64,000 nt of DNA. Source: a virus (taxonomy: Duplodnaviria; Heunggongvirae; Uroviricota; Caudoviricetes). Location of the stretch: the IMG/VR virus record IMGVR_UViG_2724679058_000003, one strand, 5' to 3'. Below the pieces are notes generated by a model. It made no database searches. It saw only the letters and a program-made list of their open reading frames with translations, and had not been told where the DNA came from. The position numbers were made by a program, and so were the translations under genes. Shown in pieces: positions 1 to 54,070 of the stretch. Numbering within the stretch: the stretch's first letter is position 1; the number at the start of each line of letters is the position of its first letter.

Positions 1-470
1 GCTGTATACTTCCCGTTAGCCAGGTCATATGCAGCCTTGACAGCTTTCGGTGTGGCGGCCAGCACTTCAGACGTGCTGTTAGTGGCACTACTGAGCTGAG
101 TGATGCCTTTCGCTGTCAACGAAGCTGTTGGCACACCAGTGATCTGATTCCAGGGATGTGTATGACTGGATGGTGCCTTTCCGGCTGCTAGATCGTATGC
201 AGCTTTAACCGCTTTTGGAGTTGCAGCTAATGTTTCAGAAGTGCTGTTGGTGTCGCTACTGAGCTGAACTATCCCTTTTTGAGCCGTGGTTGCATCCTGG
301 GCTGTATACTTCCCGTTAGCCAGGTCATATGCAGCCTTGACAGCTTTCGGTGTGGCGGCCAGCACTTCAGACGTGCTGTTAGTGGCACTACTGAGCTGAA
401 CTAATCCCTTTTGCGTTGTGCTTGCATCCTGCGCCGTATACTTGCTTTTCGCCAGATCGTAGGCTTTTTT
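1..470. repeat. Tandem degenerate ~150-bp coding repeats within the tail-fibre gene
   Basis: 1..100 is identical to 301..400; related copies at ~150..300 and ~400..470. Confidence 0.9.
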
Positions 471-1064
471 AACTGCCAGCGAACTCGCAGCAACATCACT
501 TCTGGTACTGGTTACAGAGTCTGAAATATCAATGCCGATCGTGCGGTTGATACGCTCGGATGTATCAATCATCTCTTGAGTAATGGTAGATACGCCAGCA
601 GGGATATTCACCGTACAAACCAGCAGTTCCCCATCACCTAACTGATATGAATCGGTATAGGTTCTGGCAACAAATTCAGCTGCATGAATATGTGACGCGG
701 TATTCACCTGATAGGTATCTTCTCCAAGAAGGTATCTTCCCTTCAGCACAATTGCATATTTCTTGCCTGCGTTAAGTGCAAGAGAGATATCCTTACGATG
801 CTGAATAGTTACCTGGTAGAATTCACCAATATCCACTGACGCTGCGCCAGCGGTTTTATCTCCATCCACTGAGGTGATTAACAGGTTCATCCCACCGCCA
901 GGCTTAGGCAAGAAACCAGCATAAAATCCCGGGTCAACAATTCCCCTGAATTTTCGGTTTAGAGCGGCTGACAGATATGGTTCGTGGTATTGCACATCAG
1001 ACACCAGAGCCAACGACTCGGGTGATGGGTAAGTAACCGATGTAACAACTGTAACGTCATTCAT
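1..1064 (-). CDS. Tail fibre protein (S-like), N-terminal part; gene runs off the window start
   Basis: Minus-strand ORF from ATG at 1064..1062 (MNDVTVVTSVTYPSPESL...) open to position 1; contains repeated SSATNSTSEVLAATPKAVKAAYDLANGKYTAQDA fibre motifs; not in the ORF track because no stop lies in the window. Confidence 0.85.
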   Translation of the reverse strand, partial: MNDVTVVTSVTYPSPESLALVSDVQYHEPYLSAALNRKFRGIVDPGFYAGFLPKPGGGMNLLITSVDGDKTAGAASVDIGEFYQVTIQHRKDISLALNAGKKYAIVLKGRYLLGEDTYQVNTASHIHAAEFVARTYTDSYQLGDGELLVCTVNIPAGVSTITQEMIDTSERINRTIGIDISDSVTSTRSDVAASSLAVKKAYDLAKSKYTAQDASTTQKGLVQLSSATNSTSEVLAATPKAVKAAYDLANGKYTAQDATTAQKGIVQLSSDTNSTSETLAATPKAVKAAYDLAAGKAPSSHTHPWNQITGVPTASLTAKGITQLSSATNSTSEVLAATPKAVKAAYDLANGKYT

Positions 1065-1075
1065 CAAGCATATCC

Positions 1076-1510
1076 TTATGCTGTAGTCGTGTTTATGGCC
1101 ATAACTGCGGTATATGTTTTGCCCACATACAGCGAGTCTTCTTGGACACAAATAATGGCGATTGGCTTATTCTCGTTATCCAGAACAACCAGAGTGTTGA
1201 ATGGGTAGTTTTTCCCTTCCTGCAACTGACTTTGATCAAGGTCCATTCGGACAGTAATTATCCCGCCTGAGTAGGTTGGGACGAGGTTGATGGTGCAAAA
1301 TTGACTGGTCAGTTCTGCCAGATCGAAAGCCTTTGGCAGTTCTCCAATCTCATAATTGCCATCTCCTTTCTTAGTAACCAGTGAACTGGTACCGAAAACG
1401 GCCTTGCTGATTAAAAATCGAGAGCCTTTGTTAATGGACGATTCAGCGCGCCGCTGATAGTAATAGTCCAACAACTGACTCTTATAGAGGTTTGTTGAGA
1501 CGTCAGACAT
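1076..1510 (-). CDS. Tail-fibre-associated protein (R-like position upstream of S)
   Basis: 144-aa ORF immediately upstream of the tail-fibre start; synteny only. Confidence 0.55.
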   Translation of the reverse strand: MSDVSTNLYKSQLLDYYYQRRAESSINKGSRFLISKAVFGTSSLVTKKGDGNYEIGELPKAFDLAELTSQFCTINLVPTYSGGIITVRMDLDQSQLQEGKNYPFNTLVVLDNENKPIAIICVQEDSLYVGKTYTAVMAINTTTA

Positions 1511-1588
1511 GATTTTCCCTAATCAATGTTGTGAAGCCTCATTGTAAGATAAGTAACTTGTCACCCCGCCCTGCGGACGGGGTGATTG

Positions 1589-2071
1589 TCACGCATCGCT
1601 ATCCAACAGCAAATCATCTGCGCGGGTGCGATCAAACGTAGGCGTTGCTTTCACAATAGTGCCGCCCGGCGTTGCAGTGATCGGGGCGTTAATCGACGTA
1701 ACTTCAGTAAGCGAAGTTGTATCCGAAGTTTCAAACCAGCAGAATGCTTTTTCGGTATCAGAAATCTCATTCAAAGTGATCATGTCGGCCTGTTCATTTA
1801 CAACAACCGACAAATAGAGCGTAAGCCCATCAAACACTATATGCAGTGGCAGTAGAGGCTTTACGAACTGATTAAACTTTCTGAGAATTTCTTCTGTAAT
1901 TGCGGACTGATCTATCGATCCAGTAATACCCATTGTCCGGGCCAGGTCGTTTATGGGAATACTGATCATTCCTCTGGAAGTCAGAAACATCTCGCCGAAT
2001 GTGCCGCCGGTGGTTTCCAGTGTGCTTTCTGGAATCAGGACCGTGCCATAGGGATGTCGTTCAAAGTCCAC
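1589..2071 (-). CDS. Hypothetical tail/baseplate protein
   Basis: 160-aa ORF with GTG start; frame stays open a further 12 codons upstream (to 2107); overlaps the upstream ORF by 37 nt. Confidence 0.5.
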   Translation of the reverse strand: MDFERHPYGTVLIPESTLETTGGTFGEMFLTSRGMISIPINDLARTMGITGSIDQSAITEEILRKFNQFVKPLLPLHIVFDGLTLYLSVVVNEQADMITLNEISDTEKAFCWFETSDTTSLTEVTSINAPITATPGGTIVKATPTFDRTRADDLLLDSDA

Positions 2072-2427
2072 CGGAGCATATATGGGATCCCATAAACCGA
2101 TATACCGTTAAATTCGCGATAAATTGTCTGGTTTATAGGGCGTTCAGTACCCTTAAAATGGATCTCATCAAACCGCTGTTGTAACAACATCGGAACGGAA
2201 GATGAATTCGACGTTCTGATAGTAAAAAACTGGCCAAGTTCATTTGTCCTGGTCTCCAGATCCTCCTTGCTCATGGAGAAAATAGACTTCCGGTTGGTAA
2301 TTCGCTCCAACCATGGGTCAACAAAGGTGTCCATCATTGACTGAACCAAATCAGCCAATGATTTATAAAGCAATGACTTTTGCTTAGCTGATGTAAGCCG
2401 GTTATTAAACCAGGAACGTTGCATCAC
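2035..2427 (-). CDS. Hypothetical tail/baseplate protein
   Basis: 130-aa ORF in the tail operon; may be one gene with 1589..2071. Confidence 0.45.
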   Translation of the reverse strand: MMQRSWFNNRLTSAKQKSLLYKSLADLVQSMMDTFVDPWLERITNRKSIFSMSKEDLETRTNELGQFFTIRTSNSSSVPMLLQQRFDEIHFKGTERPINQTIYREFNGISVYGIPYMLRWTLNDIPMARS

Positions 2428-3857
2428 TCCTCCTCATACGAAATATTGAAGGTGGAGTTTTCTGTATCCAGATAAACGAAATCGTAAAAGCCGTTGGACT
2501 CATACCACTCGACAAACTCCAGATAAAAGTCGCGGAAATAGCCCAGCGTTTCGATAAACGCCCAAACGTCTTTTTTCTTAATCAGGATGTACTTTCCGAC
2601 GCGGTTCGGATCAAAGAAAGTTGAGTCGCGCCCAAATTTTTTTTCCAGTGCCGACTTCAGCTCATCGGTCACATTCTCAATGGTCAGGCTTGCCGATATC
2701 CGTCCGGTGATGGTTATCTTAAATGGTAGTTTTCTGACCTCTTTATAAGAGAATTTCTTGTTCAGTTCATTCGGTACCTTCTTAAAGGCAGCCAGGATCA
2801 TTTCTTCAAGCTCTGACTGACTTTTATTCGGATGCCATCCTGAAATAAATATCTTATTGATATTCTGAACATTATAAGCACCATCTAATTTTTCTTGCTG
2901 ACCCTCGCCCCATGCCTTTACCCAGGACAGTCCCGGGATGTTACGCACCAGAAAATACGTATAGTCCCCGCCCCATACGACCTGATCATCATAGGCAAGG
3001 TAATATTGTGCACGGTTACGTGTGATCTCCGTTGTTTCGGCATCGGTACCTGTGGTTATAGGTGTCGTTGTCTTAACTGAAATCAAATTAGCTAAATTAG
3101 CCGCAGAATCGACAGGCGTCAGGTTTTGGCCAGCAACCAGGGTTATATCGCCGTTGGTGCACCATACCTTAAGCGTAATTGTCGAGCCTTCTGGCGGTAT
3201 TTGCCCAATTAGCCCATCGCCGAATCGAACTCCCAACTGCTCGGATGGTTTATAAAACTCAACGTAGACCTGGCTTTTACTACCGGCTAACCGGAACATA
3301 GTGCTGGAAGACCACTGCGTGGTCTTACCATCGGTCGTCACGAATACTTCCAGCTTATAGCAGACAGCAGTGAGAGCCTTTGATAACACGACTTCCAGAA
3401 ATTCTTTGGCTGCCGTAACGGTATATGTCACCTCCTGGATTTCCAACTGTGCCACTTCTACCGTACCGGTGCCGTCAACCAACCTGCATACATCCATAGT
3501 CATGTAAGGGTACTGGTCGTCAGATATTAAAGGCGTGTTTTTGGGGATTACCGCTGGAGCATCTTCACTTGTGGCTGTGATCTCAACCATCCCGGATGAC
3601 GGTGTTGGCTTGGTACCAACGTAACTATTCGTTTCTGCCGCTGCCAAGATAGAGGAACGCCGCGTCGCGGTCGATATAAAGCCTTCAGCCAGCGCCGCAT
3701 CGGCATACTGAAAGCACCTGTAGACAATCTGGGTAATAAACAATGTCAGCATCGAGACAAATTGAGAGCCGACAAACTTCGACCAGAATGAATCTTTCTC
3801 GACAAGCTCTTCAAACTCTGCACGAATACTGTCTTTAGTCGGTGTTGTTTTACTCAT
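2424..3857 (-). CDS. Baseplate structural protein
   Basis: 477-aa ORF, stop/start coupled to neighbours within the tail operon. Confidence 0.6.
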   Translation of the reverse strand: MSKTTPTKDSIRAEFEELVEKDSFWSKFVGSQFVSMLTLFITQIVYRCFQYADAALAEGFISTATRRSSILAAAETNSYVGTKPTPSSGMVEITATSEDAPAVIPKNTPLISDDQYPYMTMDVCRLVDGTGTVEVAQLEIQEVTYTVTAAKEFLEVVLSKALTAVCYKLEVFVTTDGKTTQWSSSTMFRLAGSKSQVYVEFYKPSEQLGVRFGDGLIGQIPPEGSTITLKVWCTNGDITLVAGQNLTPVDSAANLANLISVKTTTPITTGTDAETTEITRNRAQYYLAYDDQVVWGGDYTYFLVRNIPGLSWVKAWGEGQQEKLDGAYNVQNINKIFISGWHPNKSQSELEEMILAAFKKVPNELNKKFSYKEVRKLPFKITITGRISASLTIENVTDELKSALEKKFGRDSTFFDPNRVGKYILIKKKDVWAFIETLGYFRDFYLEFVEWYESNGFYDFVYLDTENSTFNISYEEE

Positions 3858-4213
3858 AGCACCACGTCCTGTGTGATAGTTATATCCCTGATACGAATGG
3901 ATATTTTCAACTTATCAAAAGCATCTCCCTCGGCTACTGACAAGCCAGAAATCGGTATGTCAGGTAAATCTACCGTCAGTTTTTGCAACAGCATTGCCTC
4001 AACCGCAATTTGAACATGCGACAAGTTGGTCGGTTCGTGTTTAAACTGCGGTAAAACATTGCCCCATGACGGATCTCCGTATACCTCACCCTGATAAGTG
4101 TTTAGCCACTCATATAAACGAGCGCCCCAGGCCTCCTCCTGGGACTCATACGTTTTTACGCCGGATAACTCCAGCGTCAGCAAAGGATCAATTTCGTTAT
4201 TGTTGGCCATCAA
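3854..4213 (-). CDS. Hypothetical virion morphogenesis protein
   Basis: 119-aa ORF overlapping neighbours by 4 nt. Confidence 0.55.
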   Translation of the reverse strand: MMANNNEIDPLLTLELSGVKTYESQEEAWGARLYEWLNTYQGEVYGDPSWGNVLPQFKHEPTNLSHVQIAVEAMLLQKLTVDLPDIPISGLSVAEGDAFDKLKISIRIRDITITQDVVL

Positions 4214-6252
4214 TCAACTCTCGCGTAGTCATTCATCAACGGATCATCAATTGACAGTGGTACCGTGCGCATAACGCCCGGCTGAGGCGTGCTGACCTTT
4301 ACGACAGTTCCCTGGCCTTTCGCCGAGTCTTTGGTGTGCTCTTCAATCCTGGCAAGCAATGAGGTCATCTGCGCAAACAGCCGCTTCGTTTCACCATCAA
4401 GTGAAACGGTATTATCAGCCAACTGCATTGTCGGCTTGGCACCGGAACCGCCAAGGTCACTAATAACCTGCCCGTCTATCTGCATACGACCGGTTGGTTG
4501 CTGCAAATCGTTGGCGGCAGTCGTCACCTGGGACGTGGAGGCTGGTTCAGGCGCATTATTTTTCCGCATCCCCGGCGAGTTGCGGAGTTTATCGAATAGT
4601 CCATCAATCCCCATTTGTGCGCCGAGATGGTCAAAGTAACTTGAGTTGTTGGCCACCGGACGCGCCTCTTCAACTGGCATCGGGGTATCAACATACACAT
4701 TGCCAGCTGCTGTTGCGGTCCCCTTCCCTCGTGCACGTTCTTCGAGCGTTCCCTGAACGACTTCCCGACGCATCCCCCGGCCATTCATGAATTTGTTGAC
4801 CAGATCGTTAACGCCAACAGCATTGCCGATTTTGTCTACCAGACCGCCTTTCTCAAACGGGCTATCACCAGGGGTAAACGCCAGGCCAGTAGACTGATCG
4901 ATAACAGCGTTATCAGGCAGTGGTCCCCTCACTCCATATTGCGCCCCACCCTGTGCTCCTGCTCCAGGTGTATAGATTTCACCACCTAAATAGCGAGCAC
5001 GATGAGTATTGACCTTGATCGCGTACTCACGGTTTTCTTTCGATAAGTCACCTGTGCCTTTTTTCCACTTATTAATAGTGCCAAACCCAGCATTATATGC
5101 AGTGATGGCCTCGTTTAAGTCTCCATTGGCTTGCTTCAGATACTTGCTCATGAGAAGAGCCGCAGCTTCTGCCGATTTCACAGGATCAAACGATTCACCT
5201 TCAGCTAAGCCAGTCTCTTCACGAGCAATCCCCGTGAACTGAAACATCCCCAGAGCACCGGTTTGGGATTTTGCATACGGATTACCACCAGATTCAGTTG
5301 CAGCAATCGCGTAAAGAGTGCCTTCTGGAAGACCGTATTTATTCTCTAGTTCAGCAAAATACGGAGCCAACTTATCGAGATTTGCCTTACCTTCAGCGCC
5401 AAGACTTCCGACTTTTACATCCAAGTTGCCATTGTTGTAGGTATCCGCAGCTTTCTGAATGTCATTCCTGGTACCAGTGGTATTAAGCGACGATGATGAC
5501 GAGCTATTTTGACCAATAGCTTTATCAATTTTCTGCAACGCGCTATTGCCCGTTTCTACGGCATTTGCATTGATAATCTGATTGGCAGTTTGTTTAACTG
5601 TTTTATTGCTATCTTTCGCTGTGTCCAGTGCCGCATTTATCACGCGGGTAGCAATATTACTCTGTTTGGCATCGGATTCAGTTTTAGAATCAGACGTCTC
5701 CTGGTGGCTATTAACCGGAGCTTTTAACTCTGGAGTGATTTCTTTCGCATTAGCCTCGCCGATCGGATTGGGTATTTTTGATACAATCATTGCCGCAGGG
5801 GTATTTTTAACGGCATCAACCGCTGCATCTAATGCTTTACCTGGTAAATTTTTAACCCCATCCCAAATATTACCAGCCGCCTCTTTAATGTGTTTCCCTG
5901 GGTTCTTAATGAAATCAATTGCACTATCAATTGCATCACTGAAAACCTGTTTCAGGTTATCGACAGTAAAGAAGTCTTTGATGGCATCCAGCTTTTCAAG
6001 CAGCTTATTAGATGTATCGCTAAACCATGCTGAAACAGCATCACCAATCTTTGCTGTGTAATCATCGAACTTGGTAGAAATGGTGTCGCCAAGGTTAGAA
6101 ATATATGTTTCTAAGTTGGTAATCCCACTATCAATGGTCTGGGCAATACTTTCCGTCGAAAATGATTGCAACATATTGCCGATATCCTCAAATCCAAGTG
6201 ATTTGAGAACCTCACCAATGGCGCTGCTAATACCAGATACCAGTCCCCCCAT
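4210..6252 (-). CDS. sit: Sit-like virion transglycosylase/tape-measure protein, C-terminal portion (SLT domain)
   Basis: 680-aa ORF with lytic transglycosylase motif LYAIAATESGGNPYAKSQTGALGMFQF; frame open upstream to 6313 and overlapping the 444-aa ORF. Confidence 0.75.
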   Translation of the reverse strand: MGGLVSGISSAIGEVLKSLGFEDIGNMLQSFSTESIAQTIDSGITNLETYISNLGDTISTKFDDYTAKIGDAVSAWFSDTSNKLLEKLDAIKDFFTVDNLKQVFSDAIDSAIDFIKNPGKHIKEAAGNIWDGVKNLPGKALDAAVDAVKNTPAAMIVSKIPNPIGEANAKEITPELKAPVNSHQETSDSKTESDAKQSNIATRVINAALDTAKDSNKTVKQTANQIINANAVETGNSALQKIDKAIGQNSSSSSSLNTTGTRNDIQKAADTYNNGNLDVKVGSLGAEGKANLDKLAPYFAELENKYGLPEGTLYAIAATESGGNPYAKSQTGALGMFQFTGIAREETGLAEGESFDPVKSAEAAALLMSKYLKQANGDLNEAITAYNAGFGTINKWKKGTGDLSKENREYAIKVNTHRARYLGGEIYTPGAGAQGGAQYGVRGPLPDNAVIDQSTGLAFTPGDSPFEKGGLVDKIGNAVGVNDLVNKFMNGRGMRREVVQGTLEERARGKGTATAAGNVYVDTPMPVEEARPVANNSSYFDHLGAQMGIDGLFDKLRNSPGMRKNNAPEPASTSQVTTAANDLQQPTGRMQIDGQVISDLGGSGAKPTMQLADNTVSLDGETKRLFAQMTSLLARIEEHTKDSAKGQGTVVKVSTPQPGVMRTVPLSIDDPLMNDYARVD

Positions 6253-6266
6253 ATCAAGAACATTAG

Positions 6267-7601
6267 CTAACGTATAAGCGGCTTTTGCTGGAATGATGGA
6301 TCTTGTCCTGATTTAAGCCCAAACGCTCGACGTTGCGCTTCTGTATCATTCCAACCGGTTACCGCATCATAAATACCTCCAGCCACTGTGCCGACTAGGG
6401 GAATTGCGCGTAACGCCCCTTTACCAACTGCCTTTAATCCAAGTTTACCTGCTGCCCGGGCAGCCAAATCTCCGCCTTCATGGGCGAGAGTCTTCTTGCC
6501 ACCACCGCGTAGCATTCCTACAAGTTTCTTTGCCCCCAGAGCGCCAAAAGCGAGTGCTCCAGCTTTTTTCAGCATGCCACGCCCCATTAACAACGACGCG
6601 ACGCCACCGGCCCCCTTCCCTAACAGGCTAAATAGTTTGGACAGCAAGCCGCCCTTCCTTTTCCCGGTGTTTTTGGCTATCTGATCAAGGGCGCTGAGAA
6701 TCTTGTCATTGCCCTCTTTAATTTCGCTGGTCTGCTCCTGAAGTTCCTGAACCGTCCGTTTTTGGGTGTTAACCTGAACGACATCGGCACTATTTTGCGA
6801 TTTACGCCTAAAAAAACCTTTTCTACGGCTGTTATCGTCATTGCCACGAATCACATCGGCAATAGACTTTCTGGCACCATTAAGCGATCCACCAACTTCT
6901 TTTGATATCCCGCCAAGCTCCTTCCCTGCTGCCCACAATGGACCAGCAACGGCATAACCTAACGCATCGACGGCACGAGTCTCTGAAGGGTTACCTATGC
7001 CTTCAGCTACTTTTGACAGTTTTTTTAATAAACCTGATTCAGCATTTAGACGCTCATCATCCTCTTTGCGCCTGGCCTTTTCAGCACGTTCAGCACGGGC
7101 ATCTTCCGCTGCGGCCTTACTCCCTGACTTTCCAATAAAACGACCACGCGCATCGCGTTGGTTTTGGCTTTTTTGCGCACCGCCTTTTTGACCGAACATT
7201 TCGCGAGCGTGTTCGGCTGCTTCGGTCCGTTGCGCCTTTACATCTTCTGTTATAGCCTTCTTGCGTCGTTTTTTACCCTTTCGCGTAGTTGATTTGGCCT
7301 GCGGTTCCTGTAGAGCAACATCCTCCTGAACTACACGAGAAACGTCCCCTAAATTAAGCCGTTTCATTGCCTCAACAATAGGGTCCACTGATGGCGCATT
7401 GGCCACAAAGTCTGGCCGGGAATTTTCGATTGTGCGATTTAATGCCGACACACTGCGAGAGACAGGATCAACAGTTGCAACGCGCCCCCCTTTCAAATCT
7501 TCAACAGCTTCCCGGATACCTGCAAGCTCTTCCAGCTCTTTTGCGCTGGCGGTTTCAACTGTCCTTATAACATCGTCAATGTTGGCGTTTTTTCTTTCCA
7601 T
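6267..7601 (-). CDS. sit: Sit-like protein, N-terminal portion (Gly/Lys/Ala-rich)
   Basis: 444-aa ORF ending 15 nt before the 680-aa ORF start, in the adjacent frame; a single-base change in the run at 6284..6287 would join them. Confidence 0.65.
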   Translation of the reverse strand: MERKNANIDDVIRTVETASAKELEELAGIREAVEDLKGGRVATVDPVSRSVSALNRTIENSRPDFVANAPSVDPIVEAMKRLNLGDVSRVVQEDVALQEPQAKSTTRKGKKRRKKAITEDVKAQRTEAAEHAREMFGQKGGAQKSQNQRDARGRFIGKSGSKAAAEDARAERAEKARRKEDDERLNAESGLLKKLSKVAEGIGNPSETRAVDALGYAVAGPLWAAGKELGGISKEVGGSLNGARKSIADVIRGNDDNSRRKGFFRRKSQNSADVVQVNTQKRTVQELQEQTSEIKEGNDKILSALDQIAKNTGKRKGGLLSKLFSLLGKGAGGVASLLMGRGMLKKAGALAFGALGAKKLVGMLRGGGKKTLAHEGGDLAARAAGKLGLKAVGKGALRAIPLVGTVAGGIYDAVTGWNDTEAQRRAFGLKSGQDPSFQQKPLIR

Positions 7602-7681
7602 GATCTTATCGCCTACCGTTTCGGTTTAAGTTTTTCTTCCAGTTTCTCCAACAGGAAAACGCATAGGATTCAGTAAGCCTT

Positions 7682-8563
7682 TCAGCGTCCTGAATCGGTA
7701 TACCCCCATACAAAACCAGGTTGGACACTAAGGTCTGATAGCTTTTCAATCCCCACCTGTGGAATGAAGTCGGTAGCCCGAAAGGGCACCCACAGACGGG
7801 TATATGCACCCTCTGTGGACTCCTTTTTATCCTGATTTGGGCATTTATGCGGCGGGAGACGAAGACGCATTTCACCTTTATCGATGTAGCACGGTAAACC
7901 ATGTTCGAGCTTTTCATGAGCCAGTCGGATGTGTGCCGCCAGCTTCATAAATTCAGTATCAATGGCCATCCGTTTAATCGTTTCATAACGACGCTCAGCC
8001 TGATCTTCACGAGTACCGCTAACATCGTTATAAAGCTCACACTGATAAGCGAATTCCCAAAAACGCAAATCAACGATCGCTTCTTTGAATTCCGCGTCGT
8101 CTTCAGGTGGCAATGCTGCACGGCGCATCTCCAGCATTTCCATTGCCCAACCATCAAGCGGCACGATACGCCATTGATAAGGTACTCCCTCGACAGACAC
8201 CTCAATATCGTCAATGAAAGGTTCCACTTCCAGGACCTGGATATCTTCAGCCAGAGCATTCATATCGCAATCGTAATAATGCTCTTTACCGCAATGTTTA
8301 CAGGTGTAGGTGAATGTCTCGACCGGTGTTTCACGGGAGCCGGTAAATATCCACCATAACGCGGTAATCCGGTCCTGCGCCGTCCATGTCAGGGGATCAT
8401 GTTTCGCAGGTTCAGCCAGCAAGGCTTTTAAATACGCCGTTGTCTGTTGTTCTTGTTCCTCCGGTGTTATCGAGTTGAAACGCATCGCATCAGCAATATT
8501 TGGCTGACGGAACTGGATCAATTCAGTTGGCCGCGATGGTAGCGGGAAAAGAGGTAAAAGCAT
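7682..8563 (-). CDS. Hypothetical morphogenesis protein
   Basis: 293-aa ORF in tail operon. Confidence 0.6.
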   Translation of the reverse strand: MLLPLFPLPSRPTELIQFRQPNIADAMRFNSITPEEQEQQTTAYLKALLAEPAKHDPLTWTAQDRITALWWIFTGSRETPVETFTYTCKHCGKEHYYDCDMNALAEDIQVLEVEPFIDDIEVSVEGVPYQWRIVPLDGWAMEMLEMRRAALPPEDDAEFKEAIVDLRFWEFAYQCELYNDVSGTREDQAERRYETIKRMAIDTEFMKLAAHIRLAHEKLEHGLPCYIDKGEMRLRLPPHKCPNQDKKESTEGAYTRLWVPFRATDFIPQVGIEKLSDLSVQPGFVWGYTDSGR

Positions 8564-8577
8564 CCTTGCTCCTTAAT

Positions 8578-9189
8578 TCAAAGAGAAAAACTAAAGCCCA
8601 GAAGGGAAGCCAAAGAACTTGAGGATTGGTTAAACGTGCTGTGCAATGCGAAGGTCATTGGGAATGACTTAAATTCAGTAACCTGATCTCGCGCATAGGT
8701 GACATCGCCGGTAGTGACCGGGAATACCGTCATCTCATTTTCCAGTTTGGTTAAGCCGGAAGACAGCAACCGATAAATACGCACATTGAGCAAATATTTA
8801 GACGGTATATTCCCGGTACCGTCCGGATTGATCACCCGACTTTTTGCCGTCTTAAACCAGTCCAAAACGAGGCCATCAACGGTATCCCTGACCATCATTG
8901 TTATCTGCCCTGGCGAACGCTCCGTTGGTTGAAGGATATTCCCTCCGCCGATTTTAATCGTTTCATATTCGATGCTGTAATCGTGGTAGGTAATATCTTT
9001 GGCAAAGAAGTCTGCCCCCTCCAGTCCATCAACTTCGACAGAGAACTGCCATCCTTGCGCGAACAGCATTTTGTTCATGATGATTGACGTCAGCTTACCA
9101 ACTTCCCGTTCACCAACGCCGGAGCCAAATAATGTCGTCGTTAATGCCGAAGATACATAAGACTTTACTGAAGCAACATTAAACCCCAT
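8578..9189 (-). CDS. Putative tail tube protein
   Basis: 203-aa ORF; size and position only. Confidence 0.45.
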   Translation of the reverse strand: MGFNVASVKSYVSSALTTTLFGSGVGEREVGKLTSIIMNKMLFAQGWQFSVEVDGLEGADFFAKDITYHDYSIEYETIKIGGGNILQPTERSPGQITMMVRDTVDGLVLDWFKTAKSRVINPDGTGNIPSKYLLNVRIYRLLSSGLTKLENEMTVFPVTTGDVTYARDQVTEFKSFPMTFALHSTFNQSSSSLASLLGFSFSL

Positions 9190-9199
9190 ATCAGCCCTC

Positions 9200-9790
<591 letters not shown>

Positions 9791-9916
9791 TTAACCGATT
9801 CTACGAGTAGTCATTTGTGACAGGTCATTTTGCGCGCTTTAGGCAGCCATCTTCAGGTGCCGCGTTGAAAAGCTCTGCGGCCTTACGTAGCGTAAATGTT
9901 GCGATTTTTTTTCCGT

Positions 9917-10300
9917 CTACGTATGCATCGAATGTTTTAACTTCCATATCAGGGTATCTGACCAAAAACCATACCAGTAACTATCACCCACAGAGGAACC
10001 GATAGAACTGATAGGATATTCATCATCACCAACTTTCAGCGTTATTTGTTCTTTTTTAGCATCAAATGACTCACCGCCAGGTTCTGTTTTCATGAGAGTG
10101 AGTAGTCGTGTTCCTACTTGATTGGGATCCGTATTATTAAATCCAACATCGCACTCAAATGTAAGCGTATAATTATCTTTGCTGGAAACAGCATAAGAAC
10201 GAACACCATGAGTCTCGCCGGTTGACCATTTGCTTACATTTGCCATTGATGAAAACGGAGTAAGCAAAGCAAGAATTAGAAAATATAGTTTAATGCGCAT
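9917..10300 (-). CDS. Exported small protein (Sim-region-like)
   Basis: 127-aa ORF with N-terminal signal peptide MRIKLYFLILALLTPFSSMA. Confidence 0.6.
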   Translation of the reverse strand: MRIKLYFLILALLTPFSSMANVSKWSTGETHGVRSYAVSSKDNYTLTFECDVGFNNTDPNQVGTRLLTLMKTEPGGESFDAKKEQITLKVGDDEYPISSIGSSVGDSYWYGFWSDTLIWKLKHSMHT

Positions 10301-11648: not shown

Positions 11649-12133
11649 AAACACCTCTCGTCACCCGTAATGACATAGCCGAAGCGATCGCCCTGCATAC
11701 TGCCTGTATGCCGACACGGGAGATCCCCGGCGCAATTGCCAACTATTTCATGATAACCAGACGTTTTTATACCCGAACAGATAAGGCTGTGATCAACAAG
11801 CTACTGATAGCCGAGATCAGGGATTATTTGATTGAACAAGGACGTCTACGTTACGCAACAGTGGCAGCAGAAATGAGAAAGGAGGCACATAGAATGACCG
11901 GTAATAATTTAAATGTTGAAAAACCAGCACCTGTTGCTTCAGCTACGCCAGCACCAGCCGTGAATATCATTCCCAACACCGGAGACACAATCGACAGCCT
12001 GACACTGTTAAAGATGGTCAATGAAGCGCGTAAGTTATGTGGGGAACCAGAGGTTCGGAACAACAAATTCATCGAAAAAATACTCGATGAGCTTGATGGT
12101 GAGCACTACACAAAAAGTGTAGTGAAAAAATGA
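11645..12133 (+). CDS. Antirepressor-like protein, N-terminal module
   Basis: 162-aa ORF coupled (ATGA) to the following KilAC-domain ORF. Confidence 0.55.
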   Translation: MKTPLVTRNDIAEAIALHTACMPTREIPGAIANYFMITRRFYTRTDKAVINKLLIAEIRDYLIEQGRLRYATVAAEMRKEAHRMTGNNLNVEKPAPVASATPAPAVNIIPNTGDTIDSLTLLKMVNEARKLCGEPEVRNNKFIEKILDELDGEHYTKSVVKK

Positions 12134-12681
12134 ACAAAACATCAATGCTTGTCATAACCATGACTTTCAAACAAGCCCTGCGAGTCGCCGCGCGCGAGTC
12201 AAAAGCGGTCCGCCGTTCGCTGATCGACAAACTGGAAGAATTACAGCAGGCAAACTCACCTACCCCATCGATCCCCCAGACATTACCAGAAGCCCTACGC
12301 CTGGCTGCCGAGTTAGCAGAACAGAAAATGCAGTTGGAACAACAGCTGGTGGCCGCAGCCCCTAAAGTCGATTTTGCCGACCGGGTATCAGTGGCCAATG
12401 GAATCCTGATCGGGAACTTTGCAAAGGTCGTTGGACTTAAGCAAAACGCCCTTTTCTCATGGTTGCGCCAGAACGGCATTCTCATGGCTTTTGGTGCGCG
12501 CAAAAACGTACCGCGCCAACAGTACATCAACGCCGGGTATTTCACGGTGAAAGAAGTGGTACTGGATGATGAAAATGGCTACCAGATACGGCTGACGCCC
12601 CAATTAACGGGTAAAGGCCAGCAGTGGTTAACTCGCAAGCTACTTGATGCTGGTTTGTTAAAACCAGTAGCAATAGGTTAA
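12130..12681 (+). CDS. Antirepressor, KilAC (Ant C-terminal) domain protein
   Basis: 183 aa; LPEALRLAAELAEQK...GNFAKVVGL...TGKGQQWL closely parallels the C-terminal half of the 12845..13645 protein. Confidence 0.75.
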   Translation: MNKTSMLVITMTFKQALRVAARESKAVRRSLIDKLEELQQANSPTPSIPQTLPEALRLAAELAEQKMQLEQQLVAAAPKVDFADRVSVANGILIGNFAKVVGLKQNALFSWLRQNGILMAFGARKNVPRQQYINAGYFTVKEVVLDDENGYQIRLTPQLTGKGQQWLTRKLLDAGLLKPVAIG

Positions 12682-13674: not shown

Positions 13675-14175
13675 ATGCTGGCTAAAGTCACTTTCCTGAG
13701 CTGTATAACGATGAGCGATTTTACTTTTTCTGGCTATGAATTGGCCTGCTTTGTAACACACTCCGGTCTATCCCGTAGCGCCGGGCATATCCTGTCGCAA
13801 TGTGCAAATCTCGCGGCAACAACCAGTGAATACTTCATTCACAAGCCTCACCGCCTGATCGCGGCAGAAACTGGTTATAGCCAATCAACCGTCGTTCGTG
13901 CATTCCGTGAAGCTGTAAACAAAGGAATTCTGTCTGTAGAGATTGTTATCGGCGATCACCGTGAACGTCGCGCTAACCTGTACCGGTTTACACCATCCTT
14001 TTTGGCCTTCGCACAACAAGCCAAAAATGCGCTGATTGAAAGCAAATTAAAGATCTCTTCAGCGGCAACCAAGGTTAAAGCTGTTCTCGCTAAGACATTG
14101 GCTTTATTTAATTTTTTATCCACACCCCATGTCAAAATGATACCCCCTCCCCCTGTCAGGATGACGTGGCAATAA
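13675..14175 (+). CDS. repL: RepL-like lytic replication protein, N-terminal portion
   Basis: 166-aa ORF directly after kilA; ends in a CCCCCTCCCCC tract. Confidence 0.55.
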   Translation: MLAKVTFLSCITMSDFTFSGYELACFVTHSGLSRSAGHILSQCANLAATTSEYFIHKPHRLIAAETGYSQSTVVRAFREAVNKGILSVEIVIGDHRERRANLYRFTPSFLAFAQQAKNALIESKLKISSAATKVKAVLAKTLALFNFLSTPHVKMIPPPPVRMTWQ

Positions 14176-17727: not shown

Positions 17728-19317
17728 TTACTTAATAAGCAGCGGTATGCCCTGGATACGACGGGCTACACCTGTCGGGCAGCAGGCCCAGACCACTTCC
17801 CATTTATCGAATTCCGCCTGCGTAACTTTCAGCACATACGGTTCTGTACCGTCAGCATCCGGATCACGAGGAGCCACCAGAGCACCGGCAGCGACAAAGC
17901 GATCCAAAAGTTTGGTCATCCCTTTAGTCAGACCAGCGGCAGTAATACCATCAGGGCTATGCTTCATCTGACGTGCTAACTGGACAAAGAAACGGCTGAT
18001 TGCATTCATCAGGGATGGGACGTGCTGGAAGTGCAGATAGTTATCCTGCGTGCAGCAAGTTAAAGCATCGTCGATGATCATCTGGCCAGAGGTGCCGACA
18101 GATACTTTATTGAGGCGGCCCTTAACCATTGCTTCTTCGTCCGGGGTATCTTCCGGATACAGCGGTTGAATTGACGCACGAGCAATGATGGCGCGTTCTT
18201 CTCCAGCAGGAGAATAATGCCAACCGCCGACATCAGAGTTTTTCTTGACGCCACGAGCTTTCGCCGCATATGCCACGCCAGACAGACCAAAGACCACACG
18301 GGATTGGGTCCATTTGTCTTTGCAGGAGAACGGATAGTGATAGAAAGAACAGCTTACATAATCGGTACCAAGTAAACCGGTATCTTCAACAGCAGACAGC
18401 GCTTCCGTATACGTCAATGTCGGTTTAACATCAAAGAAGCCATCAATCAGGCGATCAGAGCAGATATTACCTAACGCGGTGATCGCCGCATTGTCATAGC
18501 AACCCAGGCCGAGAACAGCGGTGTACATGTACGGCGCATTGTTCAGCACTTTAACCGCGCGCAGGTAAGCAGCAGTTGAGATTTTCGACTGATCGCCGTT
18601 GGTGCCGCCAGTGAATGCCAGCGATTTTTTATTGGCTACTTTCGCTGTCGAAATCAGCTCTTCATTAACAACCGCGCGCAGATATTTAGAACGGGCTTCC
18701 AGAGCCGTAGGCAGGTAACACAAGCGGCCCATATCATCTTTCGCTTCTTCCGCCAAAGATAAAATATGTGTCTCCAGAGTCGTAACCACACCAAGCGAAG
18801 TCGTCTGGGTCAGTTTCAGAAGGAAGCGTTCATTACCTGCACTGTCCGCAGTTGCCGTTTCGATGGTTAACTCACGCGTAGGTGAAACGCATGGGTCGCC
18901 ATCATCAACATAGATTGCAAAGGCTTCGCCGCTATCAAGTTCAATTTCAGAACCGTATGGCAACGCGCTATTAGCCGGTTCACCTGATTCATCGAACATA
19001 ATAATCGGGAATTTTGCATCATCCGGAACAGCACGGACAACATAACCAGACGTTTGCTGAATAGCTTCGTACACATGACGAATTGGTTCGAACTGTGAGC
19101 CTGAAGACGGCTTCAGCGGTTCGCCGAGAACATCCTCGTAATTGGACTCATTAACAGGAAGAACAGTAAACGGCTTGCCACGCGCAAATACACCAATACC
19201 AGCCCATAAGCTGCTATTCAATGTAGCACCGGTAGATAACGTTGCATCAGCATTAATCGGACTAACCGCGACGCCGGATGCATTACCTAATGACTGTTGA
19301 ATTGAATATTGAGACAT
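17728..19317 (-). CDS. Tail sheath protein
   Basis: 529-aa ORF with myovirus-sheath-like composition; position next to the capsid-like gene. Confidence 0.7.
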   Translation of the reverse strand: MSQYSIQQSLGNASGVAVSPINADATLSTGATLNSSLWAGIGVFARGKPFTVLPVNESNYEDVLGEPLKPSSGSQFEPIRHVYEAIQQTSGYVVRAVPDDAKFPIIMFDESGEPANSALPYGSEIELDSGEAFAIYVDDGDPCVSPTRELTIETATADSAGNERFLLKLTQTTSLGVVTTLETHILSLAEEAKDDMGRLCYLPTALEARSKYLRAVVNEELISTAKVANKKSLAFTGGTNGDQSKISTAAYLRAVKVLNNAPYMYTAVLGLGCYDNAAITALGNICSDRLIDGFFDVKPTLTYTEALSAVEDTGLLGTDYVSCSFYHYPFSCKDKWTQSRVVFGLSGVAYAAKARGVKKNSDVGGWHYSPAGEERAIIARASIQPLYPEDTPDEEAMVKGRLNKVSVGTSGQMIIDDALTCCTQDNYLHFQHVPSLMNAISRFFVQLARQMKHSPDGITAAGLTKGMTKLLDRFVAAGALVAPRDPDADGTEPYVLKVTQAEFDKWEVVWACCPTGVARRIQGIPLLIK

Positions 19318-19331
19318 AACTTCCCTGTTAT

Positions 19332-19350
19332 GCGCCCCGCACGGGGGCGC
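19332..19350 (-). other. GC-rich stem-loop between capsid-like and sheath genes
   Basis: GCGCCCC-GCACG-GGGGCGC, 7-bp stem; no U-tract, so more likely a processing/stability hairpin than a terminator. Confidence 0.4.
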
Positions 19351-19376
19351 TATGTTAAACGGAGAACTTCCCCTGA

Positions 19377-21104
19377 TTACTCAGAGTCACCGGCATCAAT
19401 CGTGTCGCCGCTTATGAAGTTAAGCCCGCCTTTTTTGGCCATAGTCAGAGTTACACGGGTGAAGTAATCAGCGCCGTTGCGTGGGTGCATATCGTTGATA
19501 GCTGAACCCCACAGAGTGGTTCGGTTGACCAGCGCCGGAGTAGTCGGATGCTGGAACGGGATAGCTGGGACAGCATCACCAGTCACAAAGCCTGCTTTGC
19601 CCGGGTTTTCATCACGGACGTAGCACAGCACATCCATCGAGCTAAACTGAATGTTCTCTGTCGTTAAGTTCTTACAAATACCAGCAGGTACTTCGTACAC
19701 TTTCACGTTACCGAACAGGGTACCGATGTAGTGAACATACGGAGTCTGAATATAGTCTTCTGCTGGCTGGAAGAAATCCTTCGGCAACTGTTTGAAGAAA
19801 GATGCTGCATCAGCACCAGCAAACATCCCCATCGCACCAGAAGATTTAACGCGCTCAATAATATCGCGATATACAGTCTGGAATTTGCCACGAATGATGG
19901 TTGCCCATACATCAAAGGACTGGTTAACCGGTAGAGCGATGTCAAATGTGTCTGTCGCAAGAGTACGCCAGATCATGATGCGAAGACGCAACATATCCTG
20001 TTCATGAGACAGGTATTCCTTCAGAGTGCGGAACTGTAGAGAACCGAGGTCAAGACCAAATTCACGCTGTGCTTCATACGCCGCCTGTACCGTGTGCTCA
20101 GCTGCAATAACGAACTGGCTGGGGAACAGGGTGTATTTCTTCATTTCGTGGTTAATCAGCGGGATCAGCTCAGGAGCGGCTTCAATATTGATTTCCGTCT
20201 CAATTGCGATCTCGGTGCCTTTATCCGGCGCTTTGGAGAACGACAGGGCAATCTGACCAATGTTGTAGTTCAGAGAGCAGGTAACAGTGATTTGCTCACC
20301 AGCAGCATTAGTAAACGAGTGAAGTAGGCTGCCGGAACCGTTATCAACAACAGACTTAATACGGTTAACGTAGATGTTAGTGCGACCTTTTCGGATTGGT
20401 ACATTCTGGCCTTCGAAGTCTTCCATCTTGAAGGTTGCGGTTTTGCTGGTGCCATCGGAGCTTGCCACCAGCACATAGCGGCGACGTAACTGGCTGTACA
20501 CACCGACGGATTGCATGTCCAGAACATCACCAGCAGCATAAGAACCAAAAGAGGAACCTGCCACGTTAAAGACTTCATAGATGTCGGACTGGTCACGCGT
20601 AACCGGAATGAAGGTACACGCATCAGCGGTAGCTGCCCCCAACTGAACAGGCAGGATCATCGCGAGGAATAAAGGCAGACGCATAACACCGTCAGAAACG
20701 CTCATCATCTCTGCTGCGACGGATTCCAGCATCGCTTTATTAGTGGCATCCATGCTATTGCGGGTGGACTCAATCAGGCAGTTTTCCAGCGTCTGGTGGC
20801 AGGAGGCCAGAATTTCCGGACGCGGCATAGATTTATGTGCTGCGGCGTAGTCAGCCAGTGCACTTGCCCACGCTGTAGCGATTTGAGCGGTGGCATTATC
20901 AGAGATCCCCGCAAAAACCGGGTCTTTACGTGCAGCTTCAAGGATAGATGCGGCACGCGCGGCATCATCTTTGATGAATTGGTTATCAGTACCGAACTGT
21001 GCTGTACTTGCCCAGCCAAGAACGGCTTTAGAGCGTTTTGCGATATCTGCAATACGATTCTGGTATTCGCGTAAGTTACTCAAGTTACTCTTCCTTAAAC
21101 ACAA
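19377..21104 (-). CDS. Major head protein candidate
   Basis: 575-aa ORF adjacent to parS, matching the recalled P1 gene order sheath-head-parS. Confidence 0.5.
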   Translation of the reverse strand: MCLRKSNLSNLREYQNRIADIAKRSKAVLGWASTAQFGTDNQFIKDDAARAASILEAARKDPVFAGISDNATAQIATAWASALADYAAAHKSMPRPEILASCHQTLENCLIESTRNSMDATNKAMLESVAAEMMSVSDGVMRLPLFLAMILPVQLGAATADACTFIPVTRDQSDIYEVFNVAGSSFGSYAAGDVLDMQSVGVYSQLRRRYVLVASSDGTSKTATFKMEDFEGQNVPIRKGRTNIYVNRIKSVVDNGSGSLLHSFTNAAGEQITVTCSLNYNIGQIALSFSKAPDKGTEIAIETEINIEAAPELIPLINHEMKKYTLFPSQFVIAAEHTVQAAYEAQREFGLDLGSLQFRTLKEYLSHEQDMLRLRIMIWRTLATDTFDIALPVNQSFDVWATIIRGKFQTVYRDIIERVKSSGAMGMFAGADAASFFKQLPKDFFQPAEDYIQTPYVHYIGTLFGNVKVYEVPAGICKNLTTENIQFSSMDVLCYVRDENPGKAGFVTGDAVPAIPFQHPTTPALVNRTTLWGSAINDMHPRNGADYFTRVTLTMAKKGGLNFISGDTIDAGDSE

Positions 21105-23522: not shown

Positions 23523-23661
23523 CGAAAGTCATCCTTTATGCTGTATTTTTGAATTTAATTAAAAATGCTACATAAAATAATAATGTATGCGCAGATGCTT
23601 GTACATAGCATTCTCTGCATGTTTGGTTCATTTTGCACGATTGAGCGTTGCAAGGAGGGCA

Positions 23662-23684
23662 CAAAAAAGCCCCGTTCAGGGGCA
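23662..23684 (-). terminator. Rho-independent terminator after the T5orf172-like gene
   Basis: Minus strand GCCCC-TGAAC-GGGGC followed by TTTTTT. Confidence 0.6.
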
Positions 23685-23690
23685 TCAGTG

Positions 23691-24500
23691 TTATTTGCTA
23701 AGAGCAGCGAATAATCGTTCGAAATCGATAGTATCTATAGCACGCGTAAGCGCCGGAAGTTCAGCCTCAAAGTACCCGTGTCGATCGTAAAAGAAGGGAC
23801 CGAAGAGCGAGGCATGTTGGATTCTACTTCGCCCCAGCCCGGACACACAGTTAAGCCCATTACCGGTTAAAAGGCTAAAAAACTTCTCTGGATTATCGTG
23901 GTAAAGCTGGGAATCAATGGTGGCGGTTAACTCTTCCATAGGGAAGCACACCCGCCCTGTCTCCCAGGGATATTTAGTCCGAAGCATAAACATTGCTTTC
24001 AGCAATTCACATTGAGCGCGGATCGCGTCCGGGTCATAGCCAGATATGGAGACATAAGCCACGTCCCTCATTCCTGCGTCATCTTTGAAAGTCACGATAG
24101 AAGTAACATCCAGTTCTTTTTCGAAAGAGCGAGCAGCATCTACTGGACGCTGAAGTAAATCATTCGACTTAATGCGCTCGAGAATCCCTCCCCACATATC
24201 ATTTAGATATTCGATATGAGCCAAAACCTTATCAAGACACTCTCGTGTAAACCATTCAGTATGCCCGCCACCGGCGCTTTTCTCCCACGGCGCATTCCAG
24301 GGGAAAAAGGTTGCGTGTAAAGCCCGCTCAAGATTAACCATTGCCAAACGCGTACCACGATAGACCCGTGAAAGCGCAAAATCGGGACTCACTTGTAGCC
24401 CTTTAAACCGTGCCAATGGACCACATGAAATGCCGATTTTAAAAGTATCTCCGTTCTCCGGCACCAGAACGTAGAGGTAGTGTTGTTTCTCTTCTTGCAT
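23691..24500 (-). CDS. T5orf172 / GIY-YIG-like domain protein
   Basis: 269 aa; N-terminal YLYVLVPENGDTFKIGIS resembles the GIY-YIG/T5orf172 motif; lies between the downstream iteron array and parA. Confidence 0.6.
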   Translation of the reverse strand: MQEEKQHYLYVLVPENGDTFKIGISCGPLARFKGLQVSPDFALSRVYRGTRLAMVNLERALHATFFPWNAPWEKSAGGGHTEWFTRECLDKVLAHIEYLNDMWGGILERIKSNDLLQRPVDAARSFEKELDVTSIVTFKDDAGMRDVAYVSISGYDPDAIRAQCELLKAMFMLRTKYPWETGRVCFPMEELTATIDSQLYHDNPEKFFSLLTGNGLNCVSGLGRSRIQHASLFGPFFYDRHGYFEAELPALTRAIDTIDFERLFAALSK

Positions 24501-24519
24501 ATCAATACCACTGCTTGAT

Positions 24520-24795
24520 GAGAACCGCGCAAATGTTGACTATGCGCGAAGGTTAATGTGAATAGTTGACTATGCGCGATGTGACTACAGTCAAAAGTTG
24601 ACTGTAGTCGATTTAACTCCACCAAAGATCGACTATGTAAGATATTGTCGGGAGAAACGTTGACTATACGCGATGAAATGACCCTAAAAGCCATCTCAAT
24701 AGCGACTTGCAGAATATTGACGCCAGCAAAAATCCACCAGCGTCAACGAATGTCGTCTATAGTCAACTTCTCGCTATCGCATATAGTCAATATTA
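24520..24795. repeat. Downstream iteron array (incA-like copy-control locus)
   Basis: At least 7 copies of TTGACTATGCGCGA-like 14-16-mers in both orientations. Confidence 0.8.
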
Positions 24796-25554
24796 TGGAT
24801 TGCGCTTATGGATCTGGAAGCCGATTTTCCTGCCGTTTTTTATCTCTGAAAATTTAAGATATTCAATAGCTTCCAAATCTTTCATGGCTTTTCTGATAAC
24901 GCTATTTTGCACGCTAACGGATGATTTGAGATTAAGCCTTGCTCTAAGGCGCTCAATGCTGACAGGTGCCGGGTTGGCGGGTAGAGCCTCAAAGAATGTA
25001 TACAGTACCTTGGCCGTCTCTTTGCGCCCGAGCTTATCCAGCATCTTCAGCTTCAGGATTCGCTTATAGTCAACATAGTAAAGTTCAGATAGCTGTTTCT
25101 GCGGCTGGATCTCGATAACATCAAGCTCGGTATTCAGGCTGCTATATGCCAACAAGTTGACGTTAATGTTATTGAGATGACCTTTTGCCGCCGGGAAGCG
25201 GAATTTGACAACTGTCTGCTGAATGCGTGTCAGAGAGTCATCAATACTTTTACGGAACGCCTTTGAAAGGCGCTTACGTGGATAGCCGCATCGATCGGCA
25301 AACTCGGAGAATGGCAGGGTGATTATACCGTCATCATCAGGTGCGTAGTCAAACAACGCGGAGGTTATGCCCACCCACACCTTAAAATCAGTATCCATAT
25401 CCAGGCGTGGACCATGAATTTCAATTCCCTCATAGCCTTCCTGCTCAACAATTTTGAGGCTTGATAGTTCTTCGGTTGCGTTCGTTGTGTTTGTTGTAAC
25501 TGACGATCCGCGACGTAGCGCCACATTGGTAGATTTTAAGGTTGGCACAAACAC
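24793..25554 (-). CDS. repA: Replication initiator RepA (iteron-binding), annotated from an internal GTG
   Basis: 253-aa ORF flanked by iteron arrays; N-terminal similarity to recalled P1 RepA continues into the upstream overlapping frame. Confidence 0.75.
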   Translation of the reverse strand: MFVPTLKSTNVALRRGSSVTTNTTNATEELSSLKIVEQEGYEGIEIHGPRLDMDTDFKVWVGITSALFDYAPDDDGIITLPFSEFADRCGYPRKRLSKAFRKSIDDSLTRIQQTVVKFRFPAAKGHLNNINVNLLAYSSLNTELDVIEIQPQKQLSELYYVDYKRILKLKMLDKLGRKETAKVLYTFFEALPANPAPVSIERLRARLNLKSSVSVQNSVIRKAMKDLEAIEYLKFSEIKNGRKIGFQIHKRNP

Positions 25555-25556
25555 AC

Positions 25557-25676
25557 CTAACGCAACAAAGCAATGGGTTGTATAGTGCTGTTGTTATTGG
25601 GCTTCAGGCTGTGGATTTCTCCTGTATTTCCTGCAACTTCTTCAACGCTAAGGAAGCCTTTACTTTCTTCCGGCAT
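25557..25676 (-). CDS. Upstream 39-codon ORF: displaced RepA N-terminus or coupled leader peptide
   Basis: ATG at 25676, stop TAG at 25559..25557 two nt before the repA GTG. Confidence 0.4.
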   Translation of the reverse strand: MPEESKGFLSVEEVAGNTGEIHSLKPNNNSTIQPIALLR

Positions 25677-25755
25677 CGTAGTTTCTCCATGTGTGGCGCG
25701 GCCTGACGTCAATTTGGATGGCTGTTATCAACAGCTGTGAATATTCAGGCTCTAA

Positions 25756-25858
25756 AATCGCGTACAGTCAATGTTTCTGTCGCGTATAGTCAACATAAAA
25801 TCGCGTGTAGTCAACAATAAATCGTGTACAGTCAACATAAAATCGCATATAGTCAATG
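25756..25858. repeat. Origin iterons (incC-like), five direct repeats at ~21-bp spacing
   Basis: TCGCGTACAGTCAATG, TCGCGTATAGTCAACA, TCGCGTGTAGTCAACA, TCGTGTACAGTCAACA, TCGCATATAGTCAATG. Confidence 0.85.
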
Positions 25859-25859
25859 T

Positions 25860-25970
25860 TGATCACGTTTCAGGCCAGACATGGCGCGGCCTACAGCGAT
25901 CCGGGATCTTATTTGGATCTTCTTAGGTTCTCTTTTGGATCTGTTTATTGGATCTATGCTGTGGATAAGT
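25860..25970. promoter_or_regulatory. Plasmid origin accessory region: six GATC sites and a DnaA box
   Basis: GATC at 25861, 25898, 25905, 25916, 25937, 25951; TGTGGATAA (complement of TTATCCACA) at 25960..25968. Confidence 0.65.
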
Positions 25971-26019
25971 TGAATAAACCGGCCACTGAGGACCGATTTC
26001 TGTGAAGGGTTGAAGCGAA

Positions 26020-26421
26020 TTAGTTGTCGTTTTCCGTACCTACTTCTTCGATCAACAAACTACTTGTATAGATACGTAACGTATCACCTTTGTAGAGGAA
26101 TTGATAACCAACACCTCCCATGGCAGGGAGGTCGGGGAACATTTCAGAAGCAACCCCAGAGCAAATCACGGCGATACAATCATCCCGCTGTACATCCTTA
26201 CGCTCTGTACTCAAAGTTTGCTCTTCCCCGATTGCCTTTGTCATCTCCTCATCTTCGTACGCAACAGGGATATATTCAATCGCATCAGGCGTTTTGATAC
26301 CCAGTTCTTCAGCAATCTCGAACGCCTGTTTAAATTGATCTGAACCAGGATATCCAACGGTAATACTCTCAATTTCGAACAGAGAAGTAGCGTTATTTAT
26401 TTCTTGTTTAACCGCAAACAT
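26020..26421 (-). CDS. Hypothetical protein
   Basis: 133-aa ORF. Confidence 0.55.
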   Translation of the reverse strand: MFAVKQEINNATSLFEIESITVGYPGSDQFKQAFEIAEELGIKTPDAIEYIPVAYEDEEMTKAIGEEQTLSTERKDVQRDDCIAVICSGVASEMFPDLPAMGGVGYQFLYKGDTLRIYTSSLLIEEVGTENDN

Positions 26422-26491
26422 GTTGTTTGTCCTTAGTGGCTTCCTGCCAAAGTAAAGTCATAAGTGTTGATATTACGATTTCTACAGTTGA

Positions 26492-26851: not shown

Positions 26852-26862
26852 AGTTTTTCCTT

Positions 26863-52912: not shown

Positions 52913-53111
52913 TATGGACAAAAACACACCTGCTTACTGGAGTTTATCACTTGATACTGAATGCCCAAAATGCGGCCACAATTTCGATCTGCTTTGCGAT
53001 GCTGATTTCTGGGAATTTTCTGGAGCAAAACAGGCATGTGAAGAAATAAAAGGTTACGAAACATGCTGCCCAGAATGTAACCATGAATTTAAAACAGATT
53101 TTGTGTATTGA
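52881..53111 (+). CDS. Small zinc-ribbon protein
   Basis: 76-aa track ORF; CPKCGH ... CCPECNH. Confidence 0.45.
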   Translation: MPLCLRVKESDMDKNTPAYWSLSLDTECPKCGHNFDLLCDADFWEFSGAKQACEEIKGYETCCPECNHEFKTDFVY

Positions 53112-53121
53112 GGCATAACGA

Positions 53122-54006: not shown

Positions 54007-54070
54007 GCTGGCCTGAAGCATTCACCACGGTAGGAATTGTGATGGCGGCAGCGCTGGGTTTGTATTCAAT

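Follow-up and report, generated by a model that had tools for sequence, protein, structure and literature searches.

The window analysed here, a stretch of 64,000 nucleotides (nt) from the IMG/VR virus record IMGVR_UViG_2724679058_000003, is, as judged from its sequence, a P1-like (Punavirus) phage-plasmid in which the gene sit, for the structural injection transglycosylase, is written as two open reading frames (ORFs) of 444 and 680 amino acids (aa), separated by the loss of one A from a homopolymer. Sit of P1 is the tail tape-measure protein, a virion tape measure with an SLT domain (Gonzales et al. 2022, PMC9024508). We consider an uncorrected sequencing or assembly indel (insertion or deletion) error of the homopolymer type to be the probable cause of the split (probability about 0.75), and the locus is best classed as the already described P1/P7 sit carrying a sequence-quality artefact, rather than as a real feature or a new kind of system.

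One base missing from sit

At the nucleotide level, positions 4210..7601 were 96.8-98.8% identical, with 100% query coverage, to sit of the Escherichia phages JL22, P7, and P1. In a tblastn comparison, P1 Sit aa 1-440 matched 7601..6282 (98.0% identity) and aa 440-1140 matched 6285..4213 (95.0%) in adjacent frames, a two-part match from which it follows that the split arrangement is not due to chance. Homology to P1 and P7 Sit thus ran from end to end across both ORFs, upholding the assignment to sit made in a preliminary description of this DNA. The parts of the locus are as follows.

7601 to 6267, minus strand: sit N-terminal fragment, 444 aa (from the ORF list), made up of Sit aa 1-440 and 4 out-of-frame residues
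6252 to 4210, minus strand: sit C-terminal fragment, 680 aa, starting at an internal ATG and equivalent to Sit aa ~451-1130
6286 to 6283, minus strand: lesion-bearing homopolymer, which reads A4 on the coding strand and T4 on the plus strand (from sequence and alignments)
6312 to 6267, minus strand: zone of 46 nt in which both frames are open (from frame translations), including CAA_AAG, whose AAG is in the zero frame
5361 to 5032, minus strand: SLT lytic transglycosylase domain (Pfam PF01464), at aa 298-407 of the 680-aa ORF

The ORF list and the frame translations bore out the 444-aa and 680-aa ORFs in adjacent frames. The former ends in ...SFQQKPLIR* at a premature TAG (6269..6267), and the latter starts at an internal Met (MGGLVSG). 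The frame of the C-terminal ORF had been described as open from 6313; it is open from 6312, as 6313 is the last base of the TAA stop (6315..6313) that closes it. After this stop the frame reads IRTRSIIPAKAAYTLANVLDMGG (...PAKAAYTLANVLDMGG). At any point within 6267..6312, the insertion of one base or a shift of -1 joins the two ORFs.

Nucleotide alignment against JL22, P7, and P1 placed the lesion at sit nt 1315, where the missing A was the sole indel that was not a multiple of three. The same missing base, at 6283, was also present in the indel lists against P1 and against the plasmid pEND_Eco 12053-2 (NZ_CP126930.1). Specifically, the run reads CAGC-AAAAGCC (A4) in the window, CAGCAAAAAGCC (A5) in P7, CAAAAATCC (A5) in P1, and CAAAAAACC in JL22, where it is an in-frame A6 that arose via a G-to-A substitution. 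The preliminary description had therefore picked out the right homopolymer and the right kind of lesion, the loss of one A that breaks one gene, with coordinates (6284..6287) that were off by one. One added A gave ...SFQQKAAYTLANVLDMGG... and a single clean ORF of 1130 aa, as had been anticipated (~1130 aa), and the repaired reading agreed at this point with P7 Sit, ...SFQQKAAYTLANVLDLGG....

The repaired gene differed from an intact allele on the IMG/VR contig L043 at 2 of 3393 nt and, among 17 full-length intact homologues, had one private codon that is nonsynonymous and none that is synonymous. Apart from the missing base, sit bears no signs of decay. Both P1 Sit (YP_006507.1, 1140 aa) and P7 Sit (AAQ07509.1, 1130 aa) are tape measures with a C-terminal SLT domain, and the window sit is the same gene with the same operon context and SLT domain, differing in that its A5 run is one A short and its ORF is consequently split into 444 and 680 aa. 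With the A restored, its length equals that of the P7 and JL22 alleles, and all three lack a 30-nt insert found within the SLT region of P1 sit. A single uninterrupted ORF of ~1130-1140 aa was the only one of the features by which we recognized Sit that is absent from the sequence as written, and one restored A brings it back; we attribute this absence to an error in the sequence, or to recent mutation, and not to membership in a different family.

The SLT domain scored 94.4 bits (cut-off, 21.3; E = 4.3e-27) over profile positions 2-115 of 117. The SLT motif set comprises a catalytic Glu-Ser, followed downstream by GLMQ-like and AYNxG motifs, and TESGG, GALGMFQF, and AYNAG, all read in the 680-aa translation, are the predicted counterparts. 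As the sequence stands, the 444-aa ORF would encode a shortened tape measure, comprising less than half of the ~750-residue helical ruler and without the muralytic domain. Since no Shine-Dalgarno-like motif was present within 20 nt upstream of the ATG of the 680-aa ORF (CGTTAGCTAATGTTCTTGAT), the C-terminal ORF would be poorly expressed alone. The earlier judgement that a functional virion protein is unlikely to be made from this sequence is correct. The neighbours of sit follow the P1 order, pmgB-sit-pmgA-bplA, in the conserved position within the late tail operon.

7682 to 8563: pmgB
3854 to 4213: pmgA
2424 to 3857: bplA

The run itself could in principle be real and partly compensated during translation, an explanation that we regard as very improbable. 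In such a case a few ribosomes would slip -1 at CAA_AAG, with tRNA-Lys re-pairing from AAG to AAA, such that wild-type full-length Sit (...QQKAAYTL...) would be made beside the truncated 444-aa product and the phage-plasmid would survive; if true, a phage structural gene whose product is needed in only a few copies per virion would be subject to 'corrective' frameshifting. The zero frame, C_CAG_CAA_AAG_CCG, does put an A before AAG, and the shifted reading is the P7 protein sequence. A_AAG is a minimal -1 shift site in Escherichia coli at which low-level compensation of nearby frameshift mutations occurs, with an efficiency that varies with the two 5' bases in NNA_AAG (Atkins et al. 2016, PMC5009743). 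As in those cases, the CAA_AAG of the window is in phase and a -1 slip would restore both frame and sequence, but the site, which comes with neither a stimulator nor conservation, offers no more than a mechanistic possibility. No downstream stimulatory structure was detected in a 101-nt fold of 6200..6300 (minus strand; z = +0.52, with 142 of 200 shuffles folding at least as well), and unstimulated A_AAG shifting is of a relatively low level (PMC5009743). Moreover, the relatives all encode Sit in one frame, such that the shift site as such is not conserved, and rescue at this site would leave the other frameshifts of the window unexplained. A full-length Sit peptide across the junction, ...DPSFQQKAAYTLANVLDMGGLV..., would result alike from an intact gene and from frameshifting. 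We rejected a programmed -1 frameshift as a designed feature, given that the slippery site is only the minimal tetranucleotide A_AAG (CAA_AAG) with no full X_XXY_YYZ heptamer, that a stimulatory structure is lacking, and that there is no two-frame conservation; a low-probability leak is the most that the site would allow.

Sit alleles in public sequences

The A4 allele was not recovered elsewhere. A 37-mer with A4 had no exact match in the genome_contigs, viral_contigs, and metagenome_contigs collections, while the corresponding 37-mer with A5 was present in 73 viral and 2 genome contigs (75 in total). Among PLSDB plasmids, for which 398 records had at least 80% coverage, the best 60 spanned 752 nt per 751-nt query, that is, they carried the extra base, and the best 60 of 382 complete E. 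coli genomes likewise spanned 752 nt for the 751-nt query. The sole exception to this span was plasmid pNCYU-26-73-2 (CP042617.1), in which the length was offset by a different deletion and sit has six 1-nt indels. No 100% match was found in the phage, plasmid, and complete E. coli genome collections, and no record of the exact 680-aa product was found.

The extra base at 6283 was also carried by 71/71 reference contigs aligned to the window; however, these had been chosen by the A5 pattern, and we dropped their agreement as population evidence for sit because it is circular. Support at the sit site was taken from the 37-mer and the PLSDB and E. coli comparisons, and the IMG/VR loci were used only at neighbouring sites, where they are independent.

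These comparisons bear on whether Sit could naturally be two polypeptides here, a split tape measure and a free virion transglycosylase. Apart from the ORF structure as written, nothing favours such an organisation, and we consider it effectively refuted already, at a likelihood below even that of compensatory slippage. Homologues that are naturally two genes, which the preliminary description had named as part of what would overturn its view, were absent among the complete relatives inspected, every one of which has a single ORF of 1130-1140 aa. Additionally, the C-terminal ORF starts at an internal Met lacking a Shine-Dalgarno motif, and a single base is all that distinguishes the junction from the single-ORF alleles.

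Fragmented sit genes are present in three other deposited sequences, namely CP042617.1 and the phages vB_EcoM-813R1 (ON470617.2) and vB_EcoM-673R5 (ON470615.2), where sit is cut into several ORFs by 1-nt homopolymer deletions, as in the window. There are several breaks per gene in these three (at sit nt 433, 792, 1037/1038, 2729, and others), whereas the window has one, at nt 1315. Some of the break positions are found again from one of these independent assemblies to another, a behaviour typical of systematic sequencing errors, and in CP042617.1 some adjoin CCWGG (Dcm) sites. The recurring breaks suggest that long-read errors of a systematic kind are present in Punavirus and plasmid sequences on deposit.

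Single-base lesions across the window

All ORFs of P1 and of pEND_Eco 12053-2, which are complete and mutually independent relatives, were translated and aligned to the window, which revealed that sit is not alone: at least 12 other conserved genes are broken or altered by single-base indels, amounting to at least 13 breaks with sit included. The genes listed below are intact in both references, and P1 and pEND_Eco 12053-2 agree with each other at the lesion sites. The preliminary description, correct as to gene and lesion, had missed these window-wide frame breaks.

~2094 (2094-2096): gene 16, A4 to A3
6283: sit, A5 to A4
9952 (9952-9954): 167-aa ORF, G4 to G3
12107-12151: ant1, diverged patch with several small indels against both P1 and pEND_Eco 12053-2
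14125 (14125-14128): repL, C5 to C4
~16718: pmgG, one base missing
25561: RepB-type plasmid replication initiator, GCGCTT to GCGTT
30085 (30085-30087): dmt, A4 to A3
38168 (38168-38172): gene 5, A4 to A5
40057: gene 24, TT to T
41115: gene 25, T to TT
43409: pmgM, C-terminus altered by a single-base deletion
46076: pmgQ, C-terminus altered by a single-base deletion
60037: pdcB, CCC to CC

The ant1 patch has the appearance of a mosaic junction, or of local misassembly, rather than that of a single homopolymer error. No nonsense substitutions were detected in real genes over ~18,000-20,000 aligned residues; the in-frame stops within the alignments were all in antisense or non-genic ORFs or lay just past a frameshift. 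In the control comparison of P1 with pEND_Eco 12053-2, one real gene (pmgS) was broken over ~28,000 aligned residues, and the 15 clean 1-nt indels were mostly noncoding by our placement on the P1 feature table.

We also compared the window with the population of related sequences, using 75 independent contigs over the sit neighbourhood, sites with at least 8 references aligned, and left-normalised positions. Within 1..10000 the window had 0 private substitutions against 4 private 1-nt homopolymer deletions (2094, 6283, 7656, and 9952). References disagreed with the window's deletion in 38/40 cases at 2094, 61/62 at 7656, and 13/13 at 9952, while a fifth private deletion, at 14125, was contradicted by 12/13. 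Private substitutions were essentially absent outside the 10.2-14.4 kilobase (kb) segment.

Many private single-base indels, for the most part homopolymer deletions, that fall throughout coding DNA regardless of gene essentiality, together with almost no private substitutions and no nonsense mutations, form the pattern expected of uncorrected indel errors. Likewise, with at least 12 other conserved genes bearing similar lesions, the split of sit is most likely an assembly error and a property of assembly quality, not a peculiarity of sit. From the missing base, its absence elsewhere, the near-identity to an intact allele, and the similar lesions, all of which were observed directly, we infer that the lesions are errors of the record rather than mutations of the DNA. 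One base would have been lost from an A5 run during base-calling or assembly, as in long-read-only or flow-based sequencing, and on the real molecule sit would be one intact ORF of 1130 aa.

Several points weigh against a sequence error. It has been deduced from the sequence of the record, and longer runs within the same gene were called correctly (A6 at sit 433 and 1037, and T7 at 792). Additionally, the indels at 25561, 40057, and 41115 are not in long homopolymers, such that the profile is not purely homopolymeric, and real pseudogenes in bacteria arise most commonly through homopolymer frameshifts.

The principal competitor is a real deletion, in which case sit would recently have become a pseudogene and the P1-like prophage-plasmid, defective and decaying, would make a 444-aa truncated tape measure lacking SLT and no infectious particles with normal tails. 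We consider this unlikely, although distinctly less so than either slippage or a natural split. The lesion is, after all, present in the sequence as given, and real mutations commonly arise by homopolymer slippage; the window indels hit coding DNA approximately in proportion to coding density, like unselected mutations; a 6.3-kb block breaks the alignment of pmgT against P1; and the gene 16 and repL deletions each recur in one other contig. However, in real mutation spectra, as known from E. coli mutation-accumulation studies, substitutions outnumber indels, whereas here at least 12 independent frameshifts are accompanied by no nonsense substitution in real genes, and the first 10 kb hold four private deletions and not one private substitution. 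A pseudogene would also have to be reconciled with a repaired sit only 2 nt from an intact allele and with an A4 allele found in no other public contig of the collections searched. Furthermore, the element's own replication initiator is frameshifted, a defect that should be incompatible with maintenance of the plasmid. PmgG is indispensable to tail morphogenesis in P1 (Gonzales et al. 2022, PMC9024508). With the replication initiator broken alongside several essential tail and baseplate genes, the sequence as written would specify no plasmid that could be maintained and no phage that would be viable. The pattern of the window is thus a poor fit to biological decay. Were the lesions true, what remained would be a P1-like plasmid that is dead, and several times over dead as a phage, which would be ordinary biology.

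A sequence error gives the locus its main significance as a matter of data quality. From the unpolished record, two sit fragments and a dozen split genes would be annotated, with the risk of a 'defective prophage' or of 'novel' short proteins being reported, and the whole window needs polishing before annotation or biological conclusions.

Two single-base deletions of this type were noncoding, one between pmgB and sit (7656-7659, A5 to A4, not in 61/62 reference contigs) and one between genes 23 and 22 (19321-19322, T3 to T2). The gene 16 A3 run was also present in the IMG/VR contig L024 (12849-12919) and the repL C4 run in L077 (7974-8049), and these two runs would seem, from such recurrence, to be miscalled, or to mutate, repeatedly. 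In the otherwise intact reference NZ_CP126930.1, pmgS appears to be frameshifted (L007/L008, ~80040-81295), with T6 against T7 in P1 and the window, and no coding sequence is listed there. Indels near 11276, 12688, 46582, and 60970 were considered as window lesions and not counted, being natural polymorphisms common to some references.

Replicon and accessory region

The plasmid replicon of the window (23621-26859) is unlike that of P1, its initiator being ~41% identical to P1 RepA. Apart from the frameshift, the initiator is 99% nucleotide-identical to the RepB-family initiator of pEND_Eco 12053-2. By these similarities, the region would represent a replicon swap of the P7/IncY-like kind.

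Finally, the block that interrupts pmgT (49173-55455) consists of ~6.3 kb of small plus-strand ORFs between matches to P1 pmgT aa 1-232 and aa 232-308. Part of it is present in pEND_Eco 12053-2, which aligns to 50608 and again from 54495, and for this reason the block is probably a known variable accessory region of P1-like plasmids.

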